64,000 nt of DNA, taken from positions 52,130 to 116,129 of the forward strand of contig SYFT01000006.1 in the NCBI GenBank assembly GCA_005799825.1. Reading direction: 5' to 3'. The notes beneath the pieces are model-generated. The model was not told the DNA's origin. It saw only the letters and a list, made by a program, of their open reading frames with translations, and searched no databases. Shown in pieces: positions 4,685-31,475 of this stretch. The DNA is from Acidobacteriota bacterium (lineage in GTDB: Bacteria; Acidobacteriota; Vicinamibacteria; Vicinamibacterales; SCN-69-37). A program made the position numbers and the translations under genes. The first letter of the stretch is position 1; the number at the start of each line of letters is the position of its first letter.

Positions 4685-6796
4685 TCAGCGCTTTCTAACT
4701 GTCGCGATCGCTGCGCCGGCCTGTTGGCCACCGACGCGGACGTTGGCGCGCAGGCGGTAGACGCCCGGCTTGAGGTCGTCGATCGGATACTCGACCGCTA
4801 CGCGCAGAACGCCGGGCGAAAACTGCGGCACCACTTCGCGCTCGTCGACGGGGTCGGTCTCTCCTGCGCGCGTGAGAATCAGCTCCACCTCGACGTCGTT
4901 CTTCAGTGCGTCGATCATGCCGGGGGCGCCTCCCGAGGGCGCGTAGAGTTCCAACAGCGCCTGGAGGCTTGTGGCCGCCGGCGGCAGTTCTTCAAGCGCC
5001 ATGCCGTGCGGTTGCCCCTTGGCGTCCACCCACGCGATGATCAAATCGCTGGCGGCAAACGGTCCCATCGAACTGAGCTCGGCCTCAACCGGAACCTCCA
5101 GCGCGCCCAGAGCGCCTGTGGCATCAGCCACGGCCAGCCGCAATCGATACGAGCCGGGTTCCGCCGGCAGCGACACGGACACCGTGAACGGCTCGCCGGT
5201 TGCGGGCACGCCGATCTCGCGGCGGCCGGTGGTGATCGCGCCCAGTGAGGCGCCGTCCTTCACCAATCCGAACATCGCCACCAGCGGCCCGCGCACGGTG
5301 CTCGGGATCTCCGCGTTCACGTTGAGGTCAAGGGCAGACGATGATGACCGGCGGAGAGCGGTGGCCACCTTGAGCGGCACCGCGCCGTGAGACTGGCCTT
5401 GGCCGATGGCCGCCCTAAGTCTGTCGTCCACGGTGGGCACCGCGGCGGCCAGGACTGACGACGCAGGCGCCACACCGTGTCGGTTGGCAAGCACCGTCAA
5501 TCCACGGCGCCTCACTTTGGCCTCGACGCTTGTGATGCGTGACGGATCCACGTCGGGCGGTGGCTCGATGCCTAGACGATAGACAGCAGCACTGGCGTTT
5601 CGCACGCGTGCGAAGAACGTATCGGGCTGGCCGATGATCCGGTAGAACTGCCCGCCCGCCATCTCGGCGGCCAATTGTCCGCCCGCAAGAAACATCTTGT
5701 TGTCTTCAATGCGGCGCTGCGGCGCACCGGTGTCGGCCTGTGCCGTCACCGAAGGCGCCACCTGATGGCGCCCCGCGTCGGTCAGGCTGAGGTCCCGCTC
5801 TTCCATCAGCACGCTCACTTGAACGCCTGCCGCGGCGGCCGCACGAGCCACAGGCGTGAGTTCGTCGGCCCTGCGGCCGACGGCGAGCCCGTCCGACAGC
5901 AGCACCAGATGCTTCAACCCTGTCGCCGCGCGCATCGCGTCGATCACCGAGACGTACGCGGACACCTGTCGCCGGGTAGTCTGTCGGGTGCGGGACGCGA
6001 TGGTACGCGCCTGCCGGCTGACTTGTCCGGCGCAGTTATTGTTCGCGATGACCACCTCGAGTGCCTGCGCATCCACGGTGGATCGATCCCCGTTGAAACA
6101 CGCCCGGGCAATCGCCACTTTAAGTTCCTCGAGATTCCCATCGTCGATCTCGATGGCCTGGTGAACACCCACCGAACCGTCTGCGTCAGGCTCTGCAGTC
6201 TCGGCGGCGGGAGCACCGACAGGAGTCAGCGCCTGCGGATTGCCCCCCTCGCCCGCTGCCTTGGCGAGCACCGCCCGGACACGCGGTCGGTCGGCCGTCG
6301 GATTAACGGCGGCTGACCCGCTGGTCGTGGCGATGCCCACAAGATCGACGGCCGGTAGAGCGTCCACGAACTTCTTTGCCGCCTGAAACAGCGCCTGGCC
6401 GCGCATCGGCTCAAACGACAAGTCATCGATCAGCAGGACGAATACGCGGTCTTCGCCGGCCTTGATGGCGGCTGCCACGACGCCCTCATTGGTGACCGTC
6501 TGCCGCCCCTGCCGGACGCCTTCAGGAGCCTCGGCTAGTTTCGGCACAACGGCTACGGCGGTCGGGGCCAACTCCCCGGCTGCCTGCACGAAGCTCAGCA
6601 CCTTGACAGGACGTACCTTGCCGTTGAGTCTTACCTCAAAATCACTGGCCGCGAGACCGGCCACAGGCTTACCGTCCCGGTCGAGAACGGACACATCCAT
6701 GGTCACGAGCGTGACCGCGCTCCGGAACGTCGGCAGTTGCTGCGACTGAGGCGACAACGCCGTCACCAACGTCAGCGCCAGACAGACATACCGCAT
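4685..6796 (-). CDS. secreted VWA-like protein, Acidobacteria-type (TIGR03436-like) paralog 2, with a long C-terminal extension
   Basis: 703 aa with a signal peptide. It has the motif TFRSAVTLVTMDVSVLDRDGKPVAGLAASDFEVRLNGKVRPVKVLSF, followed by a VWA-like core (VFVLLIDDLSFEP). Confidence 0.7.
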   Translation of the reverse strand: MRYVCLALTLVTALSPQSQQLPTFRSAVTLVTMDVSVLDRDGKPVAGLAASDFEVRLNGKVRPVKVLSFVQAAGELAPTAVAVVPKLAEAPEGVRQGRQTVTNEGVVAAAIKAGEDRVFVLLIDDLSFEPMRGQALFQAAKKFVDALPAVDLVGIATTSGSAAVNPTADRPRVRAVLAKAAGEGGNPQALTPVGAPAAETAEPDADGSVGVHQAIEIDDGNLEELKVAIARACFNGDRSTVDAQALEVVIANNNCAGQVSRQARTIASRTRQTTRRQVSAYVSVIDAMRAATGLKHLVLLSDGLAVGRRADELTPVARAAAAAGVQVSVLMEERDLSLTDAGRHQVAPSVTAQADTGAPQRRIEDNKMFLAGGQLAAEMAGGQFYRIIGQPDTFFARVRNASAAVYRLGIEPPPDVDPSRITSVEAKVRRRGLTVLANRHGVAPASSVLAAAVPTVDDRLRAAIGQGQSHGAVPLKVATALRRSSSSALDLNVNAEIPSTVRGPLVAMFGLVKDGASLGAITTGRREIGVPATGEPFTVSVSLPAEPGSYRLRLAVADATGALGALEVPVEAELSSMGPFAASDLIIAWVDAKGQPHGMALEELPPAATSLQALLELYAPSGGAPGMIDALKNDVEVELILTRAGETDPVDEREVVPQFSPGVLRVAVEYPIDDLKPGVYRLRANVRVGGQQAGAAIATVRKR

Positions 6797-6865
6797 GTGA
6801 CCATCCTACCCCCGAGGCGGGTGTAGAATCGCACTACCAGCCTCGATCGCTTCCGGAGCCCGCGC

Positions 6866-8146
6866 ATGCGCAATTACCGCAGCCTCGCCTGTGTCATTCT
6901 CGGTCTTGTGGCCTTGTGGAGCGGTGGTGTGGCCACCCAGTCCGTTCCGCCGACCCAGGCGCCGCCTCAGGCCACCTTCCGTACCATCACCTCGCTCGTC
7001 GAAGTGGATGTGGTCATTCACGACAAGAAGGGCGACTTCGTCGGCGGGTTGACCGCTGACGACCTGCAGCTGTTTGAAGACGGCACGGCCCAGAAGATCG
7101 AACAGTTCTATATGGTCTCGCACGAGCGGGGCGGGCAGCTCATCCCGGTCACCGGCGACCAGGACGTGACACCTGAAGACCGCGCGCGGCGCATCTTCGT
7201 AGTGATGTTCGACGAGGGCCACCTGGCCCACGACTCGCTGATGCGCAGCAAGGCCGGCGTGGCCACGTTCATCAAAGAGAACATCGGGCCAGGCGATTTT
7301 GGAGGAATCTTCCTGAACGGCAAGATGCACAATGGGCGCCTGACGACGAGTCCGGCTGAACTTCTGGCCGGCGTCGGCAGCGTGACGATGGGCTTTGAGA
7401 ACCGGCAGTCGATCCTCTCGACGTTCCGCGAATTCCCCAGGATCCCGAGCGAAATCGACGCCATGCGTATCTCGGAAGGGTCGATTGAGGTGGCGCGGCG
7501 CCTGGGCGCGGCCGTCTGCCAGGAGGACCCCCAGTCGTGCGCGCTCAACGGCGGCCTGAACCAGGTGGAGAACCTCATCCAACAGAAGTCGCGTCTGTAC
7601 GTGCGCCAGGCGCGCATCCTGACATATGCAACGCTGCAAAATCTGCGGTATGTCGTCAGCCGCCTCAGTCGCATCCCAGGCCGGAAGACTTTAATCTTCC
7701 TCTCAGAAGGGTTTTTCGTGGAGGAATCTCGCGACGACCTGCTCGCCATCGGCGCGGACGCGGCGCGCGGTGGGACGACGATCTACTCAATCGACGGCCG
7801 CGGCCTGATTGGTACGCCCTCGGCGACGTCGGACGCGCTGCGCACGGAAGCCGGCCGGTCTACGTCTTTTGATAGCGGTGAGGTCGCACCGTTCCTGCTG
7901 ACGTCGGCCACGGGCGGTCTGCGCATCCAGAACATCGACTTCATCAGCCGTGCGTTGAACATCGTGGTGCGCGACACGAGCACGTACTATGTGATTGGGT
8001 ATCGTCCCAACAACGCTGTCATGGACGGCAAGTTCCGAAAGATTGAAGTGAAGGCGAACGTGTCGGGCGTCAATGTCCGCTCGCGCAAGGGCTATGCCGC
8101 CGTGGCCCTGCCGCCCATGCAGGCCGTGCGCGAAGGTTGGAAGTAG
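6866..8146 (+). CDS. secreted VWA-like protein, Acidobacteria-type (TIGR03436-like) paralog 3
   Basis: 426 aa with a signal peptide. It has ATFRTITSLVEVDVVIHDKKGDFVGGLTADDLQLFEDGTAQKIEQF and a VWA-like core (IFVVMFDEGHL ... TLIFLSEGF). Confidence 0.7.
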   Translation: MRNYRSLACVILGLVALWSGGVATQSVPPTQAPPQATFRTITSLVEVDVVIHDKKGDFVGGLTADDLQLFEDGTAQKIEQFYMVSHERGGQLIPVTGDQDVTPEDRARRIFVVMFDEGHLAHDSLMRSKAGVATFIKENIGPGDFGGIFLNGKMHNGRLTTSPAELLAGVGSVTMGFENRQSILSTFREFPRIPSEIDAMRISEGSIEVARRLGAAVCQEDPQSCALNGGLNQVENLIQQKSRLYVRQARILTYATLQNLRYVVSRLSRIPGRKTLIFLSEGFFVEESRDDLLAIGADAARGGTTIYSIDGRGLIGTPSATSDALRTEAGRSTSFDSGEVAPFLLTSATGGLRIQNIDFISRALNIVVRDTSTYYVIGYRPNNAVMDGKFRKIEVKANVSGVNVRSRKGYAAVALPPMQAVREGWK

Positions 8147-8148
8147 CT

Positions 8149-9036
8149 CTACTTGATCGTGACCTTGACCTCGAAGCGCCGGTAATTGCGGTAGTCGGCC
8201 ACGCTGCGAATCTCCTCGAATTGCGTCTGAATTCGCGTGCGGGGATCGGACCCCACCTGCCCTCGGGCGCCCTCAAGATAGTGTTCGATGAACCTGGTCG
8301 GCACCCACATGCCGAGCCGGGCCTCCAGGGCGTATTCCGTGGTCAATTCGGCCTGCACCGCACCCAGCGTGGCTTTCAGTATCGCCTGCTTGATGCGGCC
8401 GGTGGTCGCGTGCACAACGAACTCTCCGGTTGAGGGCACGGGCGAGCGTGACAGGTCCTGTAGCAGCGTGTCTGGCACACGGGCTTCCTTCGCGGCGATC
8501 GTCACCCAGACGCCATCCGCCCTCTTTTGCACACGCCTACGCTCGAATGTGACGTGAGGGCGATAACGATCAGCTAGCAGCAGGAGGCTCAGGGTTGGCT
8601 CGTTAAAGTTGTGGACAATGCGGCCCAGATTGAACCGCGAGTTGTATCGTTTGAATGTCCTGGCGACCTCGTCGGGCGGGAGCCTGCGCAGGGCTTCGCG
8701 CAGGTTGGGCCGGTCGTTGATGGCCTTGCCGTTTTGTGCGAGCACGTCACGGATGGCCATCCAGTCGCTGCCGGGCGCGTACATAAAAAACACCTCACTC
8801 TGAAGGGTCCTCAGGCGTGGCATGGTCTCTTCGCGCGGCGCCTGACCATGAATCTGCTGCCGGTATTCCTCGTTGGCCAGGATGGCAGTCAGTTCACGCT
8901 GGTAGCCATTGACGTAGGCGACGGCTGCCGCCACCACGGTGTCGAGGCTCGTGGAGTCCTCGACGGCCGCGCGCTGCCGCGCCCCCAGCGGCAGAGTGGC
9001 AGCGACTAGCAGGCTCAGGACGAGCGCACGTCTCAC
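8149..9036 (-). CDS. hypothetical secreted protein
   Basis: The ORF track gives 8149..9060 with a TTG start. I prefer the GTG at 9036 because AAGGAGG lies 5 nt upstream and it yields VRRALVLSLLVAATLPLGA as a signal peptide. No family recognised. Confidence 0.55.
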   Translation of the reverse strand: MRRALVLSLLVAATLPLGARQRAAVEDSTSLDTVVAAAVAYVNGYQRELTAILANEEYRQQIHGQAPREETMPRLRTLQSEVFFMYAPGSDWMAIRDVLAQNGKAINDRPNLREALRRLPPDEVARTFKRYNSRFNLGRIVHNFNEPTLSLLLLADRYRPHVTFERRRVQKRADGVWVTIAAKEARVPDTLLQDLSRSPVPSTGEFVVHATTGRIKQAILKATLGAVQAELTTEYALEARLGMWVPTRFIEHYLEGARGQVGSDPRTRIQTQFEEIRSVADYRNYRRFEVKVTIK

Positions 9037-9058
9037 GCGGCCTCCTTGAGTGGCAGGC

Positions 9059-9095
9059 AAAAAAAACGGCCCCGGGCATTGTATGCCCGGGGCCG
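9059..9095 (-). terminator. Rho-independent terminator downstream of the TonB-dependent receptor gene
   Basis: On the minus strand: CGGCCCCGGGCAT-ACA-ATGCCCGGGGCCG, a 13-bp perfect stem with a 3-nt loop, followed by TTTTTTTT. Confidence 0.85.
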
Positions 9096-9119
9096 GTATG
9101 TTGTTCGCTTACGCCCTGT

Positions 9120-12100
9120 CTAGAACCAGAGCGTCACGCCGGCGCGGAACACGCGCGGCGGCAGGATCGAGCTGATGCGGTCGATCGGAAGAACCGGGTT
9201 CAACGCCGTACCCAGCTCGCTCAGGTTGTTGCTCGCGAAGCCGAGCACCGGCGCCGAGTTCGTGATGTTGAATCCGTCAAGCGTAAACTTGACCCGGTTC
9301 TGACCGCCCCTGAACGTGAACGTTTTGTTCAGGCCAAGGTCCCACAGGAGCGTCCGCTCCAACCGCGTCGTATCTTCGGGCTGGAACCGCAGCGAGCTGT
9401 AGCTGATCGCGCCCGTGGTGCCACCATACACCTGACCGGGGCCGTTGATAAACATGGTGCGCTGCTGGCCATCGTTCATGTTGAAGTTCGTGGACGCCAT
9501 GATGCCCCAAGGCAGGTCATAGCTGCCGTTCACCTTGAACAGATACCGCGCGCCGGTGTTCAACCCATTGTAGTACTCGAGACCTGTTGGATTGCTGTAG
9601 CTGCCCAATGGGCTGTAGTCATTGCGCTTCTGCAGTGTGAGCGCGATGTTGAGCTGCCACTTGTCGCTGTACCGCTTGTTGAGGGTCAGGTCCACGCCCT
9701 GGTAGGTCTGGTAGCTCAAGCTCGTGTCGGTGACCGACGCGCCGGAGGGTCGCGCCAGCCCCTGCTTCACCACGTAGTAGTTCGCCGATTTGCCTGTCAC
9801 CGGATCTACGTAGACGTTGGGGGTCGTGTCATAGACACTCGACGCGGGAAAGCCCGCCGCCCCAGGCTCGAAGCCGATAATGTAGCCAGCGGTGCCATTG
9901 TCATACCGGCGGTAGATGTAGTCTGCCCCCACCGCCAGGTTGGGCACCAGTTCGTGCGAGGCGCCAACCGTGACTTCCCTCGTCCGGCTGAGCTTCGCAC
10001 TATCGGCCACGCGGTTGCCCGAGGCAACGATTGAGCCGTTCACAAAATTGCTTGGCAAGGCTGCTATGCCGACAAGTTCCGGGCGCTGGATCAATCCATC
10101 ACGATTCGCGTCTGTCCAGCAGCTGGCACCCGCCGTGACGCTGCACGCGCCACTGGCCTGGTTGGGACCCCAGCCCACAATGAAGTTGCCCAGCCCCGAC
10201 AGGGCGTTGGCCAGCGTGATCTTCGTCTGGTAGTAGTAGGACCCTGAGGCCTTCAGCGCCGTCTTGCCGTTGCCAAACAGGTCATATGTCATCGACACCC
10301 TGGGCGAGAACTGATGGAACGCGCGCAATTCTTCGACCTGGCCCGTCAGGGGGCTCAGGCCGCCCGTGGCCCCCTGTTCGCAGTAGCCCGGCAGAATATC
10401 CGGAATAATTTCATTCGCCGTCACGCACCCACCCAGCCACTTGGACTGCTGCCAGTCGTACCGCAGACCCGCGTTCACGCGCAGCCGCTTGTAGCTGTAG
10501 GAATCCTGGATGTAGCCATTGTACGACCACCAGTCGTTGTTGAGCAGGTAGTCGCGGGCTAGTTGCGCCTGGTAGGGCACCAGCCCGGTCGCCCCACCCA
10601 CGGCTGTGTAGGCCCTGCCGTCGCCACAGTTCGCGAGCAAGTTGCCCACGCACTGCACGACCGCCCGGCCGCCGCCGCTCGGGTGCGTGAACGACGTAAT
10701 CGGATTCTTGCGGTAGCCGACGCCGAACTTGAAGCTGTGGTCGCCGCCGAGGACGTTCGTCAGGAACAACGTGCCGTCCGTTTTGATGTCGAGCGACGGG
10801 CGGATGGTCTGGTAGTTACTGAAGAGTGAGCGGCTCAGGTTACCTGTGGTTCGAATCTGCTGCTGCTGGATGTTGAACATGCACTGAGGTTTGTTCGCCT
10901 GCGGATAGGACGACCGGTTGATGTCGCCCGTGTACCGCGTGCCGCCGCAGTCGCCCTGCGTGTCCTGATAGTCCAGGAAGAAGCCGCCGAACACCTTGGT
11001 CAGCGCCGTGTTGAACACGAGACGGTCGCTCGCGATGAACGTGTGCGTGAGCTGGTGCAGCGGGAGCGGGAAGTACTTCCAGTACGTTTCCGACGTCTGG
11101 ATGGTGGTCGCTTCCTTTTCCGTGAACGCACTCGCACCGCGGGCGTTGCGGAACTTGTTGTCGCTCGAGAACTGGTACTGGAACTTGTGCGCCGCATTCA
11201 ACTGGAAGTTCATCTTCCCTTGCTTGTTCTTGAGGACCGTAAGGTCGCTCGACAGGCAGTCCTGCACCGTTGCGAGGTTCCCATAGGTCAGGGTGCCGCC
11301 CGTCAGCAACGTGCCGGCGCGCTGGGCGTCGGCATACTGCACGCAGGCGGGCCGCGCGCGGTCGAAGAAGTTCACAACGCCGGCATTGATCGACGTCTTG
11401 TCGACCGCTGCCCAAAACCAGAGGCGGTTCTTGATGATCGGACCGCCGTACTCGCCCGAGAAGGCGTAAATATTCTTGATCGGCGCGCCCGACAAGAATC
11501 CGCCCGTCCCACGCGAGAACTGCGTTTCGGTCACGTTGTTCGCCTGCATCTGGTCGTTCTGGAACGTGCTCAGCGCCGAGCCCTTGAACACGTTGCTGCC
11601 GCTCTTGGTCACCAAGTTGATCGACAGGCCCGACGACTGCACCGACACGTCGCCGCCGCCGTTGGTCACCGAGATCTGGTCGAACGAGTCAAAGTTGAAG
11701 TACGCCGGCGACGAGTTGGACGAGAGGTCCGTGATTGACCCGCCTTCCAAGTTCCACTGCACGTTGCTACCCGTGCCACGCGACTGCAGGCCGACCTGCT
11801 GGCCCGACGACGAGCCGCCGACGTTGAGGCCCGCCTGCACACCGGGGGTCATGTTGATAATCTGCCACGGGTCGCGCGCGGTCGGAATCTTCTCGAGGAT
11901 TTCCGACGTGAACGTCGCACCCGACGTAGTCTTCTTCGTGTCGACGACGGGCGCCGCCGCCGTGACGGTAAGTTCTTCCGACATCGCGCCAACTTCCATC
12001 TTCATGTCGACGGGCGCGTTAAAGCCGGAGGTAATCACAATACCGTTGCGTACGACCTTCTTGAAGCCGCTCAGTTCAAATGTCACCGAAAACGTGCCGT

Positions 12101-12317
12101 TCGGCACCGACGGCATCTGGTACGCGCCACTGCTAGCAGTGACCACCACCAACGGCGCCTGGAGCGCCGGACCTGCCACGGTCACCGTCACGCCGGGTAA
12201 CACGCCGCCGGACGCATCGTTGACTTTTCCGAAGATCGAACCCTGCGCCAGGGCCGCTCCGGTCATCATCGCGGTAGCCATAGCGGCTAACGCCATTACT
12301 CGCAAGACTCGCATCAT
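9120..12317 (-). CDS. TonB-dependent receptor with N-terminal carboxypeptidase-regulatory-like domain
   Basis: ORF 9120..12332. I prefer the ATG at 12317, with GGAGGAG just upstream, giving MMRVLRVMALAAMATAMMTGAALA. The CarboxypepD_reg motif is GKVNDASGGVLPGVTVTVAGP...SGAYQMPSVPNGTFSVTFELSGFKK. A plug and a long beta-barrel follow, ending in the C-terminal aromatic VTLWF. Confidence 0.85.
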   Translation of the reverse strand: MMRVLRVMALAAMATAMMTGAALAQGSIFGKVNDASGGVLPGVTVTVAGPALQAPLVVVTASSGAYQMPSVPNGTFSVTFELSGFKKVVRNGIVITSGFNAPVDMKMEVGAMSEELTVTAAAPVVDTKKTTSGATFTSEILEKIPTARDPWQIINMTPGVQAGLNVGGSSSGQQVGLQSRGTGSNVQWNLEGGSITDLSSNSSPAYFNFDSFDQISVTNGGGDVSVQSSGLSINLVTKSGSNVFKGSALSTFQNDQMQANNVTETQFSRGTGGFLSGAPIKNIYAFSGEYGGPIIKNRLWFWAAVDKTSINAGVVNFFDRARPACVQYADAQRAGTLLTGGTLTYGNLATVQDCLSSDLTVLKNKQGKMNFQLNAAHKFQYQFSSDNKFRNARGASAFTEKEATTIQTSETYWKYFPLPLHQLTHTFIASDRLVFNTALTKVFGGFFLDYQDTQGDCGGTRYTGDINRSSYPQANKPQCMFNIQQQQIRTTGNLSRSLFSNYQTIRPSLDIKTDGTLFLTNVLGGDHSFKFGVGYRKNPITSFTHPSGGGRAVVQCVGNLLANCGDGRAYTAVGGATGLVPYQAQLARDYLLNNDWWSYNGYIQDSYSYKRLRVNAGLRYDWQQSKWLGGCVTANEIIPDILPGYCEQGATGGLSPLTGQVEELRAFHQFSPRVSMTYDLFGNGKTALKASGSYYYQTKITLANALSGLGNFIVGWGPNQASGACSVTAGASCWTDANRDGLIQRPELVGIAALPSNFVNGSIVASGNRVADSAKLSRTREVTVGASHELVPNLAVGADYIYRRYDNGTAGYIIGFEPGAAGFPASSVYDTTPNVYVDPVTGKSANYYVVKQGLARPSGASVTDTSLSYQTYQGVDLTLNKRYSDKWQLNIALTLQKRNDYSPLGSYSNPTGLEYYNGLNTGARYLFKVNGSYDLPWGIMASTNFNMNDGQQRTMFINGPGQVYGGTTGAISYSSLRFQPEDTTRLERTLLWDLGLNKTFTFRGGQNRVKFTLDGFNITNSAPVLGFASNNLSELGTALNPVLPIDRISSILPPRVFRAGVTLWF

Positions 12318-12462
12318 CCTGTTCTCCTCCATCAGTTACAAAAGAACCACGTACCGGCAAAGGCAACGCCCTTCGACAGCCGTATGAACTATTGCGACGG
12401 TGAGGCATCCTACGCCTGTTCGAGGAATGTGGTCAAGACCGTCGGCGGGGAATTTTTGATGG

Positions 12463-12481
12463 TATACCCAGTAGGGGTATA
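12463..12481 (-). promoter_or_regulatory. CsoR-type operator-like palindrome TATACCC-AGTAG-GGGTATA
   Basis: Perfect 7-bp arms with a 5-nt spacer. It lies 28 nt downstream of the csoR-like stop and about 146 nt upstream of the receptor start codon. The shape matches the TACCC...GGGTA operators described for CsoR family repressors (from memory). Confidence 0.55.
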
Positions 12482-12508
12482 TTCTTGTGCCCGATGTGCC
12501 GGGCGGGT

Positions 12509-12781
12509 TCAGGAGAACCGGTCGAAGATATCGACCAGTTCCTTCAGGCGGGCTTGGCCCTCTTCACGGCCCTGTTCGACGCCCGAGGGGACGCACTGTT
12601 CGACGTGCGTCCGCAGGACGGCTAGGCTGATGCGATTCAGGGCGGCCTCGGCCGCCGAGAGCTGCTGCAGGATCTCCACACACAGACGGGGCTCCTGCAC
12701 CATCCGCCGGATCCCGCGTATCTGCCCTTCGACCCGGTTGAGCCGAGTCACCAGAAGTTGCTGCTGGGCCGCGTCTAACAT
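12509..12781 (-). CDS. csoR: CsoR/RcnR-family metal-sensing transcriptional repressor, Cu(I)-sensor fingerprint
   Basis: 90 aa: LVTRLNRVEGQIRGIRRMVQEPRLCVEILQQLSAAEAALNRISLAVLRTHVEQC. The ligand positions are C34, H59 and C63, with spacing 25 and 4 as in C36/H61/C65 of M. tuberculosis CsoR. There is no N-terminal His, so it is not RcnR-like. Confidence 0.8.
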   Translation of the reverse strand: MLDAAQQQLLVTRLNRVEGQIRGIRRMVQEPRLCVEILQQLSAAEAALNRISLAVLRTHVEQCVPSGVEQGREEGQARLKELVDIFDRFS

Positions 12782-12850
12782 GCCCTTAACTACGACCGTC
12801 CGCGACGCCTGTTACAACTGATCCTCCGGCCTTGACGCCGGACGCTCAAA

Positions 12851-12868
12851 TGAATGAACATTCATTCA
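12851..12868. promoter_or_regulatory. TetR(FadR)-type operator candidate TGAATGAA-CA-TTCATTCA
   Basis: Perfect 8-bp inverted arms with a 2-nt spacer. It ends 4 nt before the TetR ATG (12873). A TTGACG -35-like hexamer sits at 12832-12837. Confidence 0.5.
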
Positions 12869-12872
12869 GTTT

Positions 12873-13487
12873 ATGGCCCGCTCGCTCCGCATCGCAAGCC
12901 TCGCCGCACCCGACGCAGACAAACGCGTCCTCATCCTCGACGCCGCCACGCGCGTCTTTGCCGAACGCGGGTTCTTCGGCGCCCAGGTGGCCGACATCGC
13001 CCGCCGCGCCGGAATCGCCGCCGGCACGGTCTACCTCTACTTCCGCAGCAAAGACGAACTGCTCATCAGCGTGTTCGATCGCACCATGCAGGACGCCATC
13101 CGCGAAGGCCGCGAGACTCTGGCGACCATCGACGACCCGACCGCCCGCCTACACCGCATCGCCCACCTCCACCTCGCCCGCCTAGGAAGCGACCGCGACC
13201 TCGCCGTGGTGTTTCAGGTGGAACTGCGGCAGTCCACAAAGTTCATGGCGCGCCTCTCCACGTCGCGCCTGCGCGACTACCTTGGCCTCATCCGCGACAC
13301 CATCGCCGACGGACAGGCGCGCGGCGCCTTTCGCGCGCAGGTCCCGGCCACACTCGCCGCCAAAGTGTTCTTCGGCGCGCTCGACGAAATGGCCACCAAC
13401 TGGATCCTCTCCGACCGCCGCTACGCGCTGGTGGACGATGCGGATGCGGTGGTGGATGTGTTTCTTCATGGAGTGAGCACATCATGA
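12873..13487 (+). CDS. TetR-family transcriptional regulator, probable fatty-acid-degradation repressor
   Basis: 204 aa with the HTH VLILDAATRVFAERGFFGAQVADIARRAGIAAGTVYLYFRSKDELL. Its stop overlaps the next start (ATGA at 13484-13487). Confidence 0.85.
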   Translation: MARSLRIASLAAPDADKRVLILDAATRVFAERGFFGAQVADIARRAGIAAGTVYLYFRSKDELLISVFDRTMQDAIREGRETLATIDDPTARLHRIAHLHLARLGSDRDLAVVFQVELRQSTKFMARLSTSRLRDYLGLIRDTIADGQARGAFRAQVPATLAAKVFFGALDEMATNWILSDRRYALVDDADAVVDVFLHGVSTS

Positions 13488-15721
13488 CGCACCGCCTTCA
13501 GTCCGCCGCGGTGCTTGGCGCGGGCACGATGGGCGCGCCAATTGCCGCCCACCTCGCCAATGCCGGCATCCCGGTCCACCTCTTTGATGTGACCGCTAAA
13601 GCGGCCGACGCCGGCCTGGCGCGGGCACGCGCGCTCAAGCCCGACCCGTTTTTTGTCCCCGATGCGGCGGCACTCATCCACACCGGCAGCCTGGATGATC
13701 TGTCACCCCTCGCCACCGTCGACTGGATCATCGAGGCGGTCGTCGAAAATCTTGCGATTAAACAGGCCCTGGCCGAGCGCATCGATGCCGTGCGCGCCCC
13801 TCACGCCGTGGTCTCGTCCAACACGTCGGGCATTCCCCTGGCACTGGTCGCAGAGGGACGTTCGGAAGGATTCAGACGCCATTGGATGGGCACGCACTTC
13901 TTTAACCCGCCGCGGTACCTCCGTCTGGTGGAACTCATCGCCACCACCGACACCGACCCGGCGGTCACGGCACGCGTGCGCCACTGGCTGGACCACGTGC
14001 TGGGCAAAGGCGTGGTCGAGGCGAAGGACACGCCGGCGTTCATCGCCAATCATCTGGGCCTCTTCGGCGTCGTGCGGTTGCTCGATGCCGTGGCCGACGG
14101 TAGCGTGTCGATTGAAGAAGTGGACGCGATGACCGGACCGATCATCGGCCGGCCCAAAAGCGCGACCTTCCGCACTGTTGATATCGCAGGCCTCGATATC
14201 CTCACCAAAGTCGCGCACGATCTGTCGGTCCGTCTTCCACGTGAGGACGACCGCCGCGCGTTTGTGCCGCCGGCGTTTGTGGCCGCCATGCTCAAGCGCG
14301 GCCTGCTGGGCGACAAGACGGGCCAGGGCTTCTACAAAAAGACGCGCGCGGCTGGCGCCACCAAGATTGTGACGCTGGACCCGGCTTCTCTGAGCTATCG
14401 CGAGAAGCAGTCCGTTCGTCTCCCGGAACTGGACGCTGCACGCGGCACGACGGAAACCGGCGCCCGCACCCGCGATCTTTTCCTTGGCAAACACAAGACC
14501 GGCGACCTCCTACGGCGCACGCTCGGACCGACACTGCTCTACGCCGCGCGAATTGCCGGTGACATCGCGCACGACATCAACGACATCGATCGCGCCATGC
14601 GCTGGGGCTTCGGCTGGGATCTCGGCCTCTTCGAACTGTGGGACGCGATTGGGGTGGACAACGTGCTGTCGGCCTGCGGCGTCACCGAACGACCGGCGAT
14701 GCTGCCCGGGCGCACGCGGTTCCGCGAAGGCCGGCTCCCCGCCGCGGCACCCGACGTGCTGATTCTTCAATCCGCGCGGGATCGAAGCGCGGTCGTCGCG
14801 AGCAACGAAGGCGCAAGCCTGATCGACGTCGGCAACGGATGCCTCTGCGTGGAGTTCCACTCCAAGATGAACGCCATCGGCGGCGACTCGATCGCGATGC
14901 TGCAGGCGGGCGTGCGCGAAGCGGAGGCCAACTTCGAGGCCCTGGTGGTGGGCAACGATGCGCCGAACTTCTCGGCCGGCGCCAACCTGATGCTGCTTCT
15001 GCTCGAGGCCCAGGCAGGCAACTGGGACGAGGTCGATCTGATGATCCGCGCCTTCCAGGGCGCGACGATGGCGCTTAAGACGGCGGCTGTGCCCGTGGTC
15101 ATCGCGCCCGGCGGCCTGACGCTCGGCGGCGGATGCGAACTGAGCCTGCACGGCGACCGCGTGCAGGCGGCGGCCGAAACCTACATGGGCCTGGTCGAGG
15201 TGGGCGTCGGCCTGGTTCCCGCTGGCGGCGGGACGAAGGAGATGTTGCTGCGACAACCCGACGCGCAAGCGGCCTTTGAGACCATCGGCTTCGGCAAGGT
15301 CTCGACGAGCGGCCCGGATGCGAAACGGCTTGGGTATTTGCAGCGGCACGACGGCATCTCGATGAACCGCGAACGGCTCATCACCGACGCCAAAGCCGTC
15401 GCCCTGGGGTTGGCGCGCACGGGTTACCGGGCGCCGGCGCGGCGCGACGCGATCCCAGTGGGTGGCCCCTCGGCGTTTGCCACCTTGTCCCTTGGCGTGC
15501 ACCTCGCATGGCGCGCTGGCCGGCTCAGCGATCACGACGTCGTCATCGGCCGCAAGCTCGCCTGGATCCTGACGGGCGGCAACGTCCCGCACGCCACGAC
15601 ACTCTCGGAAGATCAGCTCCTCGACCTAGAACGCGAAGCGTTCCTCAGCTTGTGCGGGGAACCAAACACGCTCGAACGGATCGCATACACGCTCAAGACC
15701 GGAAAGACGTTGAGAAACTGA
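13484..15721 (+). CDS. fadN: bifunctional 3-hydroxyacyl-CoA dehydrogenase / enoyl-CoA hydratase (FadN architecture: dehydrogenase N-terminal, crotonase C-terminal)
   Basis: The true start is MTHRLQSAAVLGAGTMGAPIAAHLANAGIPV (Rossmann GxGxxG). The ORF-track start at 12854 is an Arg/Pro-rich read-through. HFFNPP is the dehydrogenase signature. The C-terminal crotonase fold has FSAGANL ... GGGCELSLH. Confidence 0.85.
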   Translation: MTHRLQSAAVLGAGTMGAPIAAHLANAGIPVHLFDVTAKAADAGLARARALKPDPFFVPDAAALIHTGSLDDLSPLATVDWIIEAVVENLAIKQALAERIDAVRAPHAVVSSNTSGIPLALVAEGRSEGFRRHWMGTHFFNPPRYLRLVELIATTDTDPAVTARVRHWLDHVLGKGVVEAKDTPAFIANHLGLFGVVRLLDAVADGSVSIEEVDAMTGPIIGRPKSATFRTVDIAGLDILTKVAHDLSVRLPREDDRRAFVPPAFVAAMLKRGLLGDKTGQGFYKKTRAAGATKIVTLDPASLSYREKQSVRLPELDAARGTTETGARTRDLFLGKHKTGDLLRRTLGPTLLYAARIAGDIAHDINDIDRAMRWGFGWDLGLFELWDAIGVDNVLSACGVTERPAMLPGRTRFREGRLPAAAPDVLILQSARDRSAVVASNEGASLIDVGNGCLCVEFHSKMNAIGGDSIAMLQAGVREAEANFEALVVGNDAPNFSAGANLMLLLLEAQAGNWDEVDLMIRAFQGATMALKTAAVPVVIAPGGLTLGGGCELSLHGDRVQAAAETYMGLVEVGVGLVPAGGGTKEMLLRQPDAQAAFETIGFGKVSTSGPDAKRLGYLQRHDGISMNRERLITDAKAVALGLARTGYRAPARRDAIPVGGPSAFATLSLGVHLAWRAGRLSDHDVVIGRKLAWILTGGNVPHATTLSEDQLLDLEREAFLSLCGEPNTLERIAYTLKTGKTLRN

Positions 15722-28204: not shown

Positions 28205-28412
28205 CGGGCGAGCCTCATGAAATGCACGGTATTATGGCACGGGGGGTAACCACTCCACCGTCGAGGTCCGTGTCATGGAACTGGGCGCGGCGCTGAAAAC
28301 GGACACTGGCCGGCATCGCCTGCTCCAAGGCGGACATCGTGGTCTTTTCCGGCATACGAAAACTACCCCTATACTTTCTGCAGACGCCCCGCGTTTGGTG
28401 AAGAGGACAGTA

Positions 28413-31400
28413 ATGATTCGATGTGTGTTCGTTTGTGCGTTCGCTCTCTTCGGCTGGACGACAGCAGCCCACGCGCAGACCGGCGCCACGCTCGCCGGCC
28501 TGGTGCAGGACGGCACTGGCGCGGTACTGCCCGGTGCACAGGTGGTGGCGCGCCAGATGGCGACCGGCGCGATACGCCAGGCCACGAGTGGTGCTGATGG
28601 CCGCTTCACTATCTCCGCTCTCCCGGCCGGCAACTACGAGGTACGGTCGGAGTTGGCCGGCTTCCGCCCGCTCGTGCGCGCCGGCATCATCCTCTCGGTC
28701 GGTGAACACGCCGCCGTCGTCCTGACTATGAAAGTGGGCGCGACCGAAGCCGTGACGGTGACCGCCGCCACGTCTCAGGTGAACACGAGATCGTCGGAAT
28801 TAAGTTTCCTCGTCGATCAGCGCACCATCGCGCAGATTCCCGTGAACGGACGCAACTACACCGACCTGATGTCGCTGCTCCCGGGCGTGACGCCCTTCGC
28901 GCATCGCGACAACGGTTCAGTGGTGGCGCACGGCGTAGCGATGAGCGTCAACGGCCAGGACCCGCGCGCTAACGTGTATCTGCTCGACGGCACATTGCTC
29001 AACGATTTCACCAACGGACCTGCGGGATCGGCGGCCAGCACCGCTCTGGGCATGGACACCGTCCAGGAATTCCGGCTCGAGTCCAACTCCTACAGCGCCC
29101 AGTTTGGGCGGAACATCGGCGGCCAGGTCAACGCCATCACCAAGTCGGGGTCGAACCAATTCACCGGCAGCGCGTTCGAGTTCCACCGGAACGAGGCGCT
29201 CGACGCGCGCAACTACTTCGACGTGGGCGATAAACCCGATTTCATGCGCAACCAGTTTGGCGGCACTCTCGGCGGGCCGCTTGTCCGCGACCGGCTCTTC
29301 TTTTTTGCCGGCTACGAGGCACTCCTTGAAACACTGGGTCGCTCGATTCTGACGACCGTACCCGACGACAACGCACGGCTCGGGCTGCTTCCGGGCGGCG
29401 TCACGATCCCGATCAACCCCCAGGTGCTGCCCTACCTCAACGAGTTCCCGCGGGCGAACGGCGAGAACCTCGGCGGCGGCCTGGCGCGCTACACGTTCCC
29501 GTTTGACCAGAAGCTCGACCAGCACTTCGCCCAGCTCCGCCTGGACGCCGTCCTCGCCAATGGCGCCCAGCTCTTCGCCCGCTACACGTTCGACGATGCG
29601 GAACAACGGCTGCCGACCGACTTTCCGCAGTTCCCTCGCTCGTTCATCTCGCGTAATCAGTTTGCGACGGCGGAATATCGCCAGGCTCTGGGACAACGGA
29701 CCTTCTACACCGTGCACCTGGGCTACAGCCGCACGCGCGTGGGTCAGAACGTGGAGGCCAACACGATGCAGCCGGTCAGTGAGTTTGCCGCCGGCCGCTC
29801 CCTGATGGGCGCCATCGACATCGGTGGAATCCCCCGTTTTGGCCCGCAGCTGTCGGCCAACCTTCGTCTGCGCCAGGACGTGCTGAGCCTGAAGTACGAC
29901 ATCACGCAGTCTCGCGGGCGCCATTTCCTGAAGGCCGGCGCGCTGGCTGAATATTACGTCTCGAGCGAGTTCAACCCGACGTTCAGCCTTGGCGTGTTCC
30001 GCTTCGCCAACATCGCAGCGTTCCTGCGCAACACGCCTGCGAGTTTCATCGGCCTGACGCCGCAGGGCGACGTCAACCGCCGCTGGCCGTTCACGATCTT
30101 CGGCGCCTACCTGCAGGACGACATTCAGCTGACGTCCCGGGTCACCGCCAACGTGGGCCTCCGGTTCGAAGGATCGACGATGCCCCGTGATGAGGGGGGG
30201 CGCGATATCAACATGCCCGACCTGCTGGGCGTGCCGGTCGTGGGCCAGTTGTACGACAATCCGGCGCCGACGCTCTCGCCCCGCGCGGGCGTGGTCTGGG
30301 ATGTGCGCGGTGATGGCCGCACGTCGATTCGCAGCGGCTACGGGCTCTACTACAACACCAGCAACCACCAGAATCTGATCGTCACCGTAACTAACCCGCC
30401 GAGTACGCCGCGGGTAGTCATTGCGAGTCCGACGTTTCCGGTGCCGCCATTCGAGCGGTTAACAGGCATCTCGGTGCGGCCGATTCAGAACGACGTGCAA
30501 CTGCCGCGCGTCCACATGTGGAACGCGAGTGTGCAGCAGGAATTCTTTACGGACTGGGTGGCGACCGTCAGTTATGCCGGAGCGCGCGGCACACACTTGT
30601 GGCGGAATTCGGACGTTAACGTCCCTGCACCAGCCACGCTGGCCGACGGCACGTTGTTTTATGCAGCGGGCCTACAGCGCCCCAACCGCAACTACTCGGC
30701 GATTGAGCTCAAGTCCAGCAACGGTGACTCCTGGTACAAAGCACTCATCGTCGAGGTCAAGAAGCGATGGAATCGCGGCCTGCAGGTGCAATCGTCGTAC
30801 ACGTGGTCGAAGTCCGAAGACACCACACAGAACTCCACGTTTTTTTCGGACTCAACCACTGCCACCACGTCGGCGATGCCCGAGTTCATCAAGGGCTACA
30901 ACAAGGGTCTGTCGGATTTCCACGCAGAACACAATTGGGTGACTAACTTCGTGTGGGAGCCCTTCAGGGGATGGCGCCTGTCGGGCATCGTGCGCCTGCG
31001 CAGCGGCAGCCCGCTGACGCCGTTTGTGCAGACGAACCGGTCGCGGTCGCTGTGGTCGCCGTCGTTGGGCCCCGGCACGGGGCCGGATCGGCCGAGTTAT
31101 GCGCCTGGCCGCAACGCGTCGAACGCCGTCACGGGCAATCCGGCCCAGTGGTTTGATCCGACGGCGTTTGTGCTGCAGCCAATCGGCACGTTCGGCAAGG
31201 TCGGCCGCAACGAACTCATTGGACCCGATCTGCGGACAGTGGATCTGGCGGTGAGCAAAGTAGTCGGGTTGAGCCGTCTTGGCGCGGGCCGCAGCACAGT
31301 GGGACTGCGCGCGGAGGTGTTCAACCTTCTCAATCGCGCAAACTTTGGCCCGCCGTCGCTTGTGGCCTTCGCCGGGAGCGCCGACAACGAAGCGCCGCTC

Positions 31401-31475
31401 ACCTCGTTCGGCCAGATTCGTTCGACCATTACGTCCGCGCGGCAGATGCAGCTGGGGCTGCGCATCAGTTTCTAG
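28413..31475 (+). CDS. TonB-dependent receptor with N-terminal carboxypeptidase-regulatory-like domain
   Basis: I prefer the ATG at 28413 (MIRCVFVCAFALFGWTTAAHA), in frame with the ORF-track start at 28275. It has GLVQDGTGAVLPGAQVVARQMATG...DGRFTISALPAGNYEVRSELAGFRP and a plug (VNGRNYTDLMSLLPGV). The C-terminus is LGLRISF. Confidence 0.85.
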   Translation: MIRCVFVCAFALFGWTTAAHAQTGATLAGLVQDGTGAVLPGAQVVARQMATGAIRQATSGADGRFTISALPAGNYEVRSELAGFRPLVRAGIILSVGEHAAVVLTMKVGATEAVTVTAATSQVNTRSSELSFLVDQRTIAQIPVNGRNYTDLMSLLPGVTPFAHRDNGSVVAHGVAMSVNGQDPRANVYLLDGTLLNDFTNGPAGSAASTALGMDTVQEFRLESNSYSAQFGRNIGGQVNAITKSGSNQFTGSAFEFHRNEALDARNYFDVGDKPDFMRNQFGGTLGGPLVRDRLFFFAGYEALLETLGRSILTTVPDDNARLGLLPGGVTIPINPQVLPYLNEFPRANGENLGGGLARYTFPFDQKLDQHFAQLRLDAVLANGAQLFARYTFDDAEQRLPTDFPQFPRSFISRNQFATAEYRQALGQRTFYTVHLGYSRTRVGQNVEANTMQPVSEFAAGRSLMGAIDIGGIPRFGPQLSANLRLRQDVLSLKYDITQSRGRHFLKAGALAEYYVSSEFNPTFSLGVFRFANIAAFLRNTPASFIGLTPQGDVNRRWPFTIFGAYLQDDIQLTSRVTANVGLRFEGSTMPRDEGGRDINMPDLLGVPVVGQLYDNPAPTLSPRAGVVWDVRGDGRTSIRSGYGLYYNTSNHQNLIVTVTNPPSTPRVVIASPTFPVPPFERLTGISVRPIQNDVQLPRVHMWNASVQQEFFTDWVATVSYAGARGTHLWRNSDVNVPAPATLADGTLFYAAGLQRPNRNYSAIELKSSNGDSWYKALIVEVKKRWNRGLQVQSSYTWSKSEDTTQNSTFFSDSTTATTSAMPEFIKGYNKGLSDFHAEHNWVTNFVWEPFRGWRLSGIVRLRSGSPLTPFVQTNRSRSLWSPSLGPGTGPDRPSYAPGRNASNAVTGNPAQWFDPTAFVLQPIGTFGKVGRNELIGPDLRTVDLAVSKVVGLSRLGAGRSTVGLRAEVFNLLNRANFGPPSLVAFAGSADNEAPLTSFGQIRSTITSARQMQLGLRISF

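Follow-up and report, generated by a model that had tools for sequence, protein, structure and literature searches.

To our knowledge, CsoR regulons have been described in Gram-positive bacteria and a small number of others, and they center on copper efflux, chaperones, and detoxification. Here we describe a perfect palindrome (positions 12463–12481) in a 64,000-nucleotide (nt) stretch of DNA from a soil or freshwater acidobacterium of the order Vicinamibacterales (contig SYFT01000006.1; the whole stretch is called the window), which lies between a csoR-family gene and the gene for an Oar-class TonB-dependent transporter (the receptor). The type-2 CsoR operators of Streptomyces lividans (csoR/copZA), Bacillus subtilis, Listeria monocytogenes, and Staphylococcus aureus have the same AT-rich ends, TAC-X9-GTA dyad, C/G tracts, and N5 center as this palindrome, and the type-2 Cu(I) CsoRs have the same Cys-His-Cys ligands and RLXR/Gln DNA-contact motif as the protein encoded in the window. 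The layout differs: known CsoR operators overlap csoR or copZA promoters, whereas the site in the window sits 27 nt upstream of the –35 element of a transporter gene, and, unlike in known CsoR systems, the csoR gene of the window has no recognizable site of its own and no efflux gene nearby. We propose, with a probability of roughly 0.45, that the palindrome is a genuine type-2 CsoR-family operator belonging to the promoter module of the Oar-class receptor and is not the control region of csoR itself. We infer that the adjacent CsoR would be the binder, Cu(I) the effector, repression the effect, and action from upstream the mode.

Precedents exist for parts of this arrangement. CueR and OprC of Pseudomonas aeruginosa provide one for a cytoplasmic copper sensor that controls a TonB-dependent transporter. 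However, CueR belongs to the MerR-type activators and not to the CsoR repressors, and OprC, as a NosA-type transporter, has a CxxxM-HxM copper site, which is missing from the window receptor. The direction of control differs as well: high copper represses OprC but would induce a target of CsoR. For CsoR acting on a gene outside efflux and detoxification, the precedent is ycnJ of B. subtilis, a copper-acquisition gene that is under YcnK and CsoR, at least as the citation of Chillappagari et al. 2009 in PMC7558416 puts it. YcnJ, however, comes from a Gram-positive bacterium and is a CopC/CopD fusion of the inner membrane; it is not a TonB-dependent transporter of the outer membrane. The receptor has the same architecture (CarboxypepD_reg extension, plug, and 22-strand barrel) as Oar of Myxococcus xanthus, a TonB-dependent transporter required for secretion of the protease PopC (PMC6434023); the likeness is one of domain architecture only, Oar has no known link to copper or CsoR, and the comparison shows only that a receptor of this class need not be an importer. 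Finally, TTHA1953 of Thermus thermophilus is a CsoR-family repressor of sox genes and a redox/persulfide sensor with a TAC/GTA-repeat site, TACNNTACNNNNGTANNGTA (PMC10318464). It is a two-Cys sensor with a repeat-built site, whereas the window protein keeps the His ligand and the window site is a single dyad with C/G tracts.

A full-text literature search returned no report of CsoR-family control of a TonB-dependent transporter, and none for Acidobacteria. The candidate regulator–operator pair is itself of a known kind; what is new is the target class, a TonB-dependent transporter, and the location of the operator upstream of the promoter. Acidobacteria are abundant but poorly studied bacteria of soil and freshwater, with dozens of Oar-class transporters that have no known function. 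If correct, our proposal would provide the first regulatory handle on one such transporter, extend CsoR control to the outer membrane, and offer a test case for how a CsoR tetramer acts from upstream of a promoter. The prediction is concrete, involving one 19-bp site, one 90-residue protein, and one transcript.

Results

The palindrome and its match to type-2 CsoR operators

The plus strand of 12463–12481 reads TATACCCAGTAGGGGTATA, a 7+5+7 inverted repeat without mismatch (TATACCC-AGTAG-GGGTATA; as a palindrome, it is assigned no strand). A first-pass annotation, made from the letters of the window alone, had reported this perfect repeat, and we find it as described and in a single exact copy in the window. 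Read on the minus strand, positions 12462–12482 (21 nt) are ATATACCCCTACTGGGTATAC, which matches 12 of the 12 conserved positions of the streptomycete type-2 CsoR consensus ATATACCCCTNAGGGGTATAT (conserved at positions 3–8 and 14–19 around a free N5 center; PMC3902906). Identity at both of these blocks is accompanied by the C/G tracts, the AT-rich ends, and the N5 center, and the TAC-X9-GTA dyad that is essential for CsoR binding to the type-2 operator (PMC3902906) falls at 12477–12479 (TAC) and 12465–12467 (GTA) in the minus-strand reading. The TACCC...GGGTA architecture that the annotation had given for CsoR operators is therefore correct by the published consensus (PMC3902906). Judged by its sequence, this candidate site is a textbook type-2 CsoR operator.

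We estimated how often such a site would arise by chance. A search of the 64-kb window for TATACCC-N5-GGGTATA with up to three mismatches gave one exact match and two matches with three mismatches, against a mean of 0.24 in shuffled sequence, with three or more matches in 0 of 100 shuffles. The core TACCC-N3-7-GGGTA occurs once in the window, where 0.05 occurrences are expected. These figures bear on a different explanation, in which no protein binds the palindrome and it is either an inverted repeat that arose by chance or a hairpin in the RNA where the csoR message ends. In keeping with a hairpin, two small stem-loops can be folded from the transcribed strand (minimum free energy –17.8 kcal/mol, z = –2.25) just past the stop of csoR. 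However, no U-run follows them, a terminator scan of the csoR–receptor interval yielded no terminator-like site, and no Rfam family matched, and on these grounds we rejected a terminator or riboswitch reading. The chance expectation of 0.05 per window and the match at the exact conserved positions of a known operator also count against this explanation, as do the orthologous sites described below, whose arms are conserved around a variable loop in divergent-promoter DNA that is not transcribed. We consider it very improbable.

The CsoR-family regulator

The csoR-family gene (12509–12781, minus strand) encodes a 90-residue protein, identified from its translation, from alignment to solved structures, and from 120 homologues. 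Its residues 8–87 match the Trns_repr_metal domain PF02583 above the gathering score (85.9 bits against a cutoff of 22.8). In the alignment, C34, H59, and C63 fall on the residues that bind Cu(I) in the CsoRs of Mycobacterium tuberculosis, S. lividans, and Geobacillus (2hh7, 4adz, and 4m1p), in agreement with the Cu(I)-sensor ligand set that the annotation had assigned to the protein. We take C36/H61/C65 of M. tuberculosis CsoR to be the reference for this x-Cys-His-Cys fingerprint. The protein also has the RLXR motif (R13-L14-x-R16) and Q40, the counterparts of the residues that contact the TAC/GTA dyad in S. lividans CsoR (PMC3902906). All ligand and DNA-contact residues are kept in at least 119 of the 120 closest homologues: Cys34, Arg13, Arg16, and Gln40, together with Glu81, in 120/120, and H59 and C63 in 119/120 each.

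The N terminus, MLDAAQQQLL, contains neither His nor Pro, so that the extra ligand of the RcnR/InrS type or of the FrmR type is absent. An N-terminal His is the mark of the nickel and cobalt sensors RcnR and InrS, and Pro2 that of the formaldehyde sensor FrmR. Scores against the NCBIfam models were all under their cutoffs (RicR, 71.9 versus 175 bits; RcnR, 37.7 versus 138; FrmR, 33.8 versus 133). Because these values are so far below the cutoffs, we regard the protein as a CsoR-family member with a copper-type fingerprint and not as an orthologue of a named regulator. From the ligand fingerprint, Cu(I) is its most likely effector.

Position of the palindrome and predicted promoters

The palindrome starts 27 nt past the stop codon of csoR, and its other end is 146 nt ahead of the ATG of the receptor gene. 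Both genes are on the minus strand, so the annotation was right to place it between the csoR stop and a 1065-residue CarboxypepD_reg receptor gene on the same strand. The only sigma-70-like promoter that a consensus scan found on the receptor strand (12407–12436, minus strand) has TTGACC at 12431–12436 as its predicted –35 element, an 18-nt spacer, and TAGGAT at 12407–12412 as its predicted –10 element. Both hexamers are invariant across the four close sequence variants of the lineage that includes the window (type A, below), and both are kept in the orthologous receptor promoters of two further lineages. The end of the palindrome lies 27 nt upstream of the predicted –35, its center is at about –73 from the predicted transcription start, and an A-tract, AAAAATT, lies between the palindrome and the –35. 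A protein bound at such an upstream place would be unlikely to act by simply occluding RNA polymerase.

For csoR, we predict a promoter at 12787–12816 (minus strand), inferred from TGTAAC at 12811–12816, an 18-nt spacer, and TAGTTA at 12787–12792. It ends 5 nt before the csoR ATG, suggesting a nearly leaderless transcript, and its GGTCGTAGT core is kept across relatives in sequence and position. Allowing up to three mismatches, we found no CsoR box in or near this element or elsewhere upstream of csoR, as the annotation had also noted. Its remark that no copA or copZ gene is adjacent agrees with our scans as well: no P1B-ATPase, HMA-domain, or other copper-homeostasis gene was present among the open reading frames scanned in the window, and a six-frame motif scan of the window detected no copper ATPase or HMA domain.

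Conservation of the palindrome arms at orthologous receptor promoters

A search for receptor homologues led to loci L195–L199 (the L numbers are our handles for the collected loci), where L197 is GCA_045862915.1 and L198/L199 come from a JGI lake metagenome. In L197 and L198/L199, which represent two other Vicinamibacterales lineages, a receptor 66% identical to that of the window is followed by homologues of the 426-residue and 703-residue VWA-domain proteins whose genes come after the receptor in the window (4685–8146). This gene pair serves as a marker of positional orthologues, and because the same pair follows, we take the L197/L198 receptor (T3) to be the positional orthologue of the window receptor. 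Homologues of both VWA genes are also found after receptors in L195 and L011. No csoR gene was present within the fetched flanks of L197 or L198/L199; the L197 genome has a csoR homologue (P0065) that, by locus tag, is about 340 genes from the receptor locus.

The L198/L199 site is ATATACCCC-AGTA-GGAGTATAT and the L197 site is GATACCCC-CTTG-GGAGTATT. In context, the upstream region of L198 reads CATCCATATACCCCAGTAGGAGTATATTTCACC, then 25 nt, then TTGACC-N18-TAGCAT, and that of L197 reads ACCGATACCCCCTTGGGAGTATTGGC, then 15 nt, then TTGACG-N18-TAGGAT. The promoter hexamers (TTGAC-N18-TAG(G/C)AT) align with the window receptor promoter. The arms ATACCCC and GGAGTAT are shared by L197 and L198 and are close to ATACCCC and GGGTAT of the window, while the central four bases are not the same. 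Such a pattern, in which the arms are kept around a center that is free to vary, is the usual footprint of a protein-binding site. The distance from site to –35 is 27 nt in the window, 25 nt in L198, and 15 nt in L197, such that the long and short forms are about one helical turn apart; these three cases are suggestive of helical-turn spacing of the site relative to the –35. The claim of the annotation that the palindrome is positioned to control the receptor thus holds in part, in that the arms are kept upstream of the positionally orthologous receptor in two lineages, but the site stops 27 nt short of the –35 and has no overlap with the promoter.

The arms are rare outside this context. In the 1.73–1.75 Mb of related DNA that we collected, the strict TAC-CC...GG-GTA element was found only in type A, plus an X10 variant in L197, and outside type A the relaxed arm motif was found only in L197, L198/L199, and two unrelated places. 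We took one match, TAGTCCCACGGGGGTACTA in L030, as chance, since it lies inside a coding frame.

Relatives of the csoR locus

We also collected relatives by way of CsoR (79 genome loci, 80 metagenome loci, and the loci from 12 exact-protein look-ups). Among 114 distinct acidobacterial loci, the gene after csoR encodes a receptor in 54, a CarboxypepD_reg and TPR protein of about 320 residues in 44, and something else in 16. A higher receptor count, 98 of 117, came from an iterative profile search and was rejected, because the CarboxypepD_reg domain is shared and Pfam shows that the short matches are TPR proteins. The receptors at csoR-adjacent loci are often just about 26% identical to that of the window. 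Moreover, the order is part of a larger syntenic block that comprises the beta-oxidation operon, the TetR gene, csoR, the receptor, the TPR protein, and a sulfatase gene. The csoR–receptor synteny that the annotation had proposed to check in relatives is therefore real in 54 of the 114 loci but is mostly inherited gene order, and because the whole block is syntenic we gave the adjacency little weight as evidence of regulation. No copper gene was seen near csoR in about 190 acidobacterial loci.

The csoR-adjacent palindrome is limited to the narrow type-A lineage (the window, L100–L105, and L011), and a search of the regions upstream and downstream of csoR in all relatives found none outside type A. 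GCA_947490735.1 is among the type-A genomes. In L100–L105 the palindrome reads CATACCCCTACTGGGTATA, a perfect 6+5+6 repeat in L100 and L101. A test for purifying selection within type A was uninformative, since the four variants are too alike and the palindrome is as variable as its flanks. We also set aside the idea that, in type A, the palindrome is what remains of a promoter spacer, namely that of the first tandem receptor in type B, L014, and L016; the alignment was suggestive but too short, and it is superseded by the orthology with T3 of L197/L198.

Other CsoR-type sites occur in the collection. L016 has a perfect palindrome, TACTATAC-TGGG-GTATAGTA, within the spacer of a receptor promoter, and it fits the TTHA1953 site TACNNTACNNNNGTANNGTA perfectly; because of this match, we conclude that CsoR-type sites recur at the promoters of this receptor family, with a geometry that is not uniform. 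Candidate autoregulatory dyads are present upstream of csoR in two lineages (L141 and L084). At L141, a tandem heptamer array, (CAACCGG)n with about 10 copies (55–130), lies just upstream of the candidate CsoR box CCATAC-N10-GTATGG before csoR. In the Dehalococcoidia loci L088 and L089 (CsoR 42% identical; about 7928–10870), a C/G-tract palindrome lies about 37–70 nt upstream of csoR, and a CopA-type ATPase (DKTGT, CPC, and GMxCxxC) is encoded directly downstream. These positive controls show the classical order, indicating that our methods detect canonical box–csoR–copA layouts.

Discussion

A model for receptor control, and evidence for and against it

In the mechanism that we favor, effector-free tetramers of the adjacent CsoR would bind the TAC-X9-GTA dyad, whose center is about 73 nt upstream of the predicted receptor start, and would lower receptor transcription. 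Bound CsoR could act as a roadblock for polymerases that read through csoR, a gene with an apparently constitutive promoter and no terminator behind it. Alternatively, or in addition, it could hinder RNA polymerase at the receptor promoter by way of upstream contacts (the AAAAATT region), and DNA wrapping, which has been described for Escherichia coli RcnR, would be a further way to do so. Binding of Cu(I) to C34/H59/C63 would then take CsoR off the DNA, and receptor expression would go up.

A wider reading, which we find rather doubtful, is that the CsoR of Vicinamibacterales was rewired from cytoplasmic efflux genes to an envelope module consisting of the Oar-class transporter and, in some lineages, a divergent ArnT-like PMT_2/TPR glycosyltransferase, with the operator at a fixed position upstream of the –35 (15, 25, or 27 nt) and a copper-induced outer-membrane response as the outcome. 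Such a position would point to a mechanism other than occlusion, for example a roadblock, wrapping of the DNA, or anti-activation. Were this so, the response might serve export or sequestration instead of import, and it would be new for this repressor family.

Several observations weigh against a receptor operator of the kind that we propose. The palindrome does not overlap the predicted –35 or –10 of the receptor, unlike characterized CsoR operators such as the cso site of M. tuberculosis, which overlap the promoter (PMC10318464). The orthologous L197/L198 sites are spaced TAC-X10-GTA, not X9, and most paralogous receptor promoters have no site (T1–T3 of L195, L196, T1 and T2 of L197, and T1 and T2 of type B). 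In L011 the palindrome is degenerate, CATACCCATACTGAGTATA, with both G/C tracts altered. Across the four type-A variants, 3 of its 19 positions change, a rate much like that of the surrounding spacer, and we therefore read no selection signal within type A. Type-B genomes, among them GCA_963853495.1 and GCA_016716905.1, encode a CsoR that is 97–99% identical; they have an extra tandem receptor and no palindrome before either receptor. Whether orthologous loci keep the palindrome, a question that the annotation had raised, consequently has a mixed answer: type A and the L197/L198 receptor orthologues keep it, whereas the L011 copy is degenerate, and type B and most csoR loci have none. Lastly, the L197/L198 site is about 6 nt from TTGACG, the putative –35 of the divergent PMT_2/TPR gene, and for this reason it may serve both directions or mainly the divergent gene.

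Some of these points would fit a real CsoR-family site left over or displaced from an older, divergent control region, with little or no effect on the receptor; whatever effect is left would be on the csoR transcript (at its 3' end or through an antisense promoter). Where L197/L198 have the divergent –35, the window retains only TTGTG, followed by the csoR 3' end. The region past csoR is rearranged among close relatives (one receptor in type A, two in type B, and REP-like repeats), and the palindrome is no better conserved than its flanks and is decaying in L011. On the plus strand, a promoter-like match, TTGATG-16-TATATT, spans the palindrome and points into csoR; its –10, however, is not conserved (TATGTT or TATGTG in L100, L101, and L011). 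Decay is also hard to square with a palindrome that is perfect in the window and 6+5+6 perfect in L100/L101, and with arms that are kept out to the distant L197/L198, always together with a receptor promoter. We think a vestigial site unlikely.

A final point against our proposal concerns the effector. A second-shell Tyr35–Glu81 network couples Cu(I) binding to DNA release in the CsoRs of M. tuberculosis and B. subtilis. Just ahead of the first Cys, 2hh7, 4m1p, and 4adz have Tyr, but the window protein (like 117 of 120 homologues) has Leu, leaving the network incomplete, with Glu81 kept and Tyr replaced. Because the second-shell Tyr is missing, Cu(I) as effector is open to doubt. The palindrome might then be a functional receptor operator that answers to a signal other than copper, or that is bound by another CsoR-family paralogue, for instance a CstR/TTHA1953-like sensor of persulfide or oxidants or an InrS-like nickel sensor. 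The C-H-C set is shared by InrS (match 5fmn), which reportedly senses nickel, and at least one related genome has two csoR paralogues (L029 and L042, in the same metagenome-assembled genome). CsoR-family members with similar TAC/GTA sites sense non-metal signals (PMC10318464). The lack of copper genes near csoR and the low RicR score of the window protein are in line with such a signal, too. Opposed to this are the near-invariant Cys-His-Cys triad and Glu81 (at least 119 of 120 homologues), the absence of both the N-terminal His of InrS/RcnR and the Pro2 of FrmR, and the best structural-sequence match, which is the Cu(I) CsoR 4m1p (E = 2e–17). We judge a non-copper signal or a different binder to be improbable, and we retain an operator of the receptor promoter under the adjacent, copper-type CsoR as our working model.

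The receptor and its promoter region

The receptor gene (9120–12317, minus strand) starts at ATGATG behind GGAGGAG, giving 1065 residues from 12317, whereas the list of open reading frames extends it to 12332 (1070 residues). The protein has a signal peptide, and Pfam searches delimit a CarboxypepD_reg domain (PF13620, 52.3 bits), a plug, and an OMP_b-brl_4 barrel (PF25183, 100.7 bits); the plug is borderline, its 23.4 bits being just below the 23.9 cutoff. A CarboxypepD_reg N-terminal extension with plug and beta-barrel defines the Oar subclass (PMC6434023), and by its predicted domains the receptor is a member of this architectural subclass of TonB-dependent transporters. A homologue search with the receptor gave no match with an informative name. 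The protein, which has 7 His and 10 Cys residues, contains no OprC-like CxxxM-HxM copper motif (no C...M or H.M), and we found no sign in it that the receptor itself handles copper. Past the gene, an intrinsic terminator (9059–9096, minus strand) consists of a 12-bp G+C-rich stem, a 3-nt loop, and a T8 run, and the same hairpin trails receptor genes at related loci. Because this terminator is strong, we take the receptor transcription unit to contain no further gene on its 3' side.

Conservation is strong in the 5' leaders of receptor genes, above that of the rest of the intergenic region, as GTGTCCGGTATCGGACACCGTCCG in one group (L007, L017, L019, L039, L045, L058, and L060) and as CACCGTCGCAATAGTTCA.ACGGCTGTCGAAGGGCGTTGCCTTTGC in type A (window 12340–12400); an Rfam search with the window copy returned no family. 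Promoters of sigma-54 type (TGGAC/TGGGT-N..-TTGCA, GG-N10-GC) precede many of the csoR-adjacent receptor genes of relatives, as seen in L001, L026–L028, L062–L076, L085, L193, L195 (T2 and T3), and L014 (T2), with conserved TCCAA-N4-6-TTGGA palindromes upstream that resemble enhancer-binding-protein sites. This pattern points to sigma-54 control of Oar-class receptors in Vicinamibacterales. Tandem receptors number from one to three among close relatives, and REP-like (repetitive extragenic palindromic) repeats, GTAGGGCG(G/T)CC..., CCTCGTAGGGCGG, and TTACGGC units, occur in several copies downstream of csoR in L014, L090–L093, L192, and L195 (in the csoR–T1 spacer in L014 and L195). From these sequences, recombination appears to have a hot spot downstream of csoR. 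The window contains two more CarboxypepD_reg TonB-dependent receptor genes (28275–31475, plus strand, and 40182–42560, minus strand), and no CsoR-like site with up to three mismatches was present near either.

Neighboring genes

The two VWA-domain genes after the receptor are of the Acidobacteria type (TIGR03436, by NCBIfam) and are divergent: one of 426 residues at 6866–8146 on the plus strand and one of 703 residues at 4685–6796 on the minus strand. The 70-bp gap between them contains an imperfect C/G-tract palindrome, TACCCCCGAGGCGGGTGTA, at 6807–6825, which shares bases with a TAGGAT hexamer located 8 nt ahead of the 703-residue gene's start. We left it out as a second CsoR site, given its non-canonical TAC-X13-GTA spacing and its retention only in the closest relative, L011, and not in L195/L198.

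Upstream of csoR and divergent from it is a TetR gene (12873–13487, plus strand; NCBIfam), whose product matches the NCBIfam model of the Bacillus-type fatty-acid regulator FadR at 179 bits, just under the 200-bit cutoff. A 955-residue open reading frame at 12854–15721 is an artifact that fuses the TetR region with the next, FadB-like gene. The TetR gene heads a beta-oxidation operon that encodes a 3-hydroxyacyl-CoA dehydrogenase/enoyl-CoA hydratase, two hydrolases, a thiolase, and an acyl-CoA dehydrogenase. Five nucleotides upstream of its start is a perfect 18-bp palindrome, TGAATGAATGTTCATTCA (12851–12868), which, together with a CTTGACG –35, is kept in nearly all related loci and is, from its sequence and place, probably a FadR operator.

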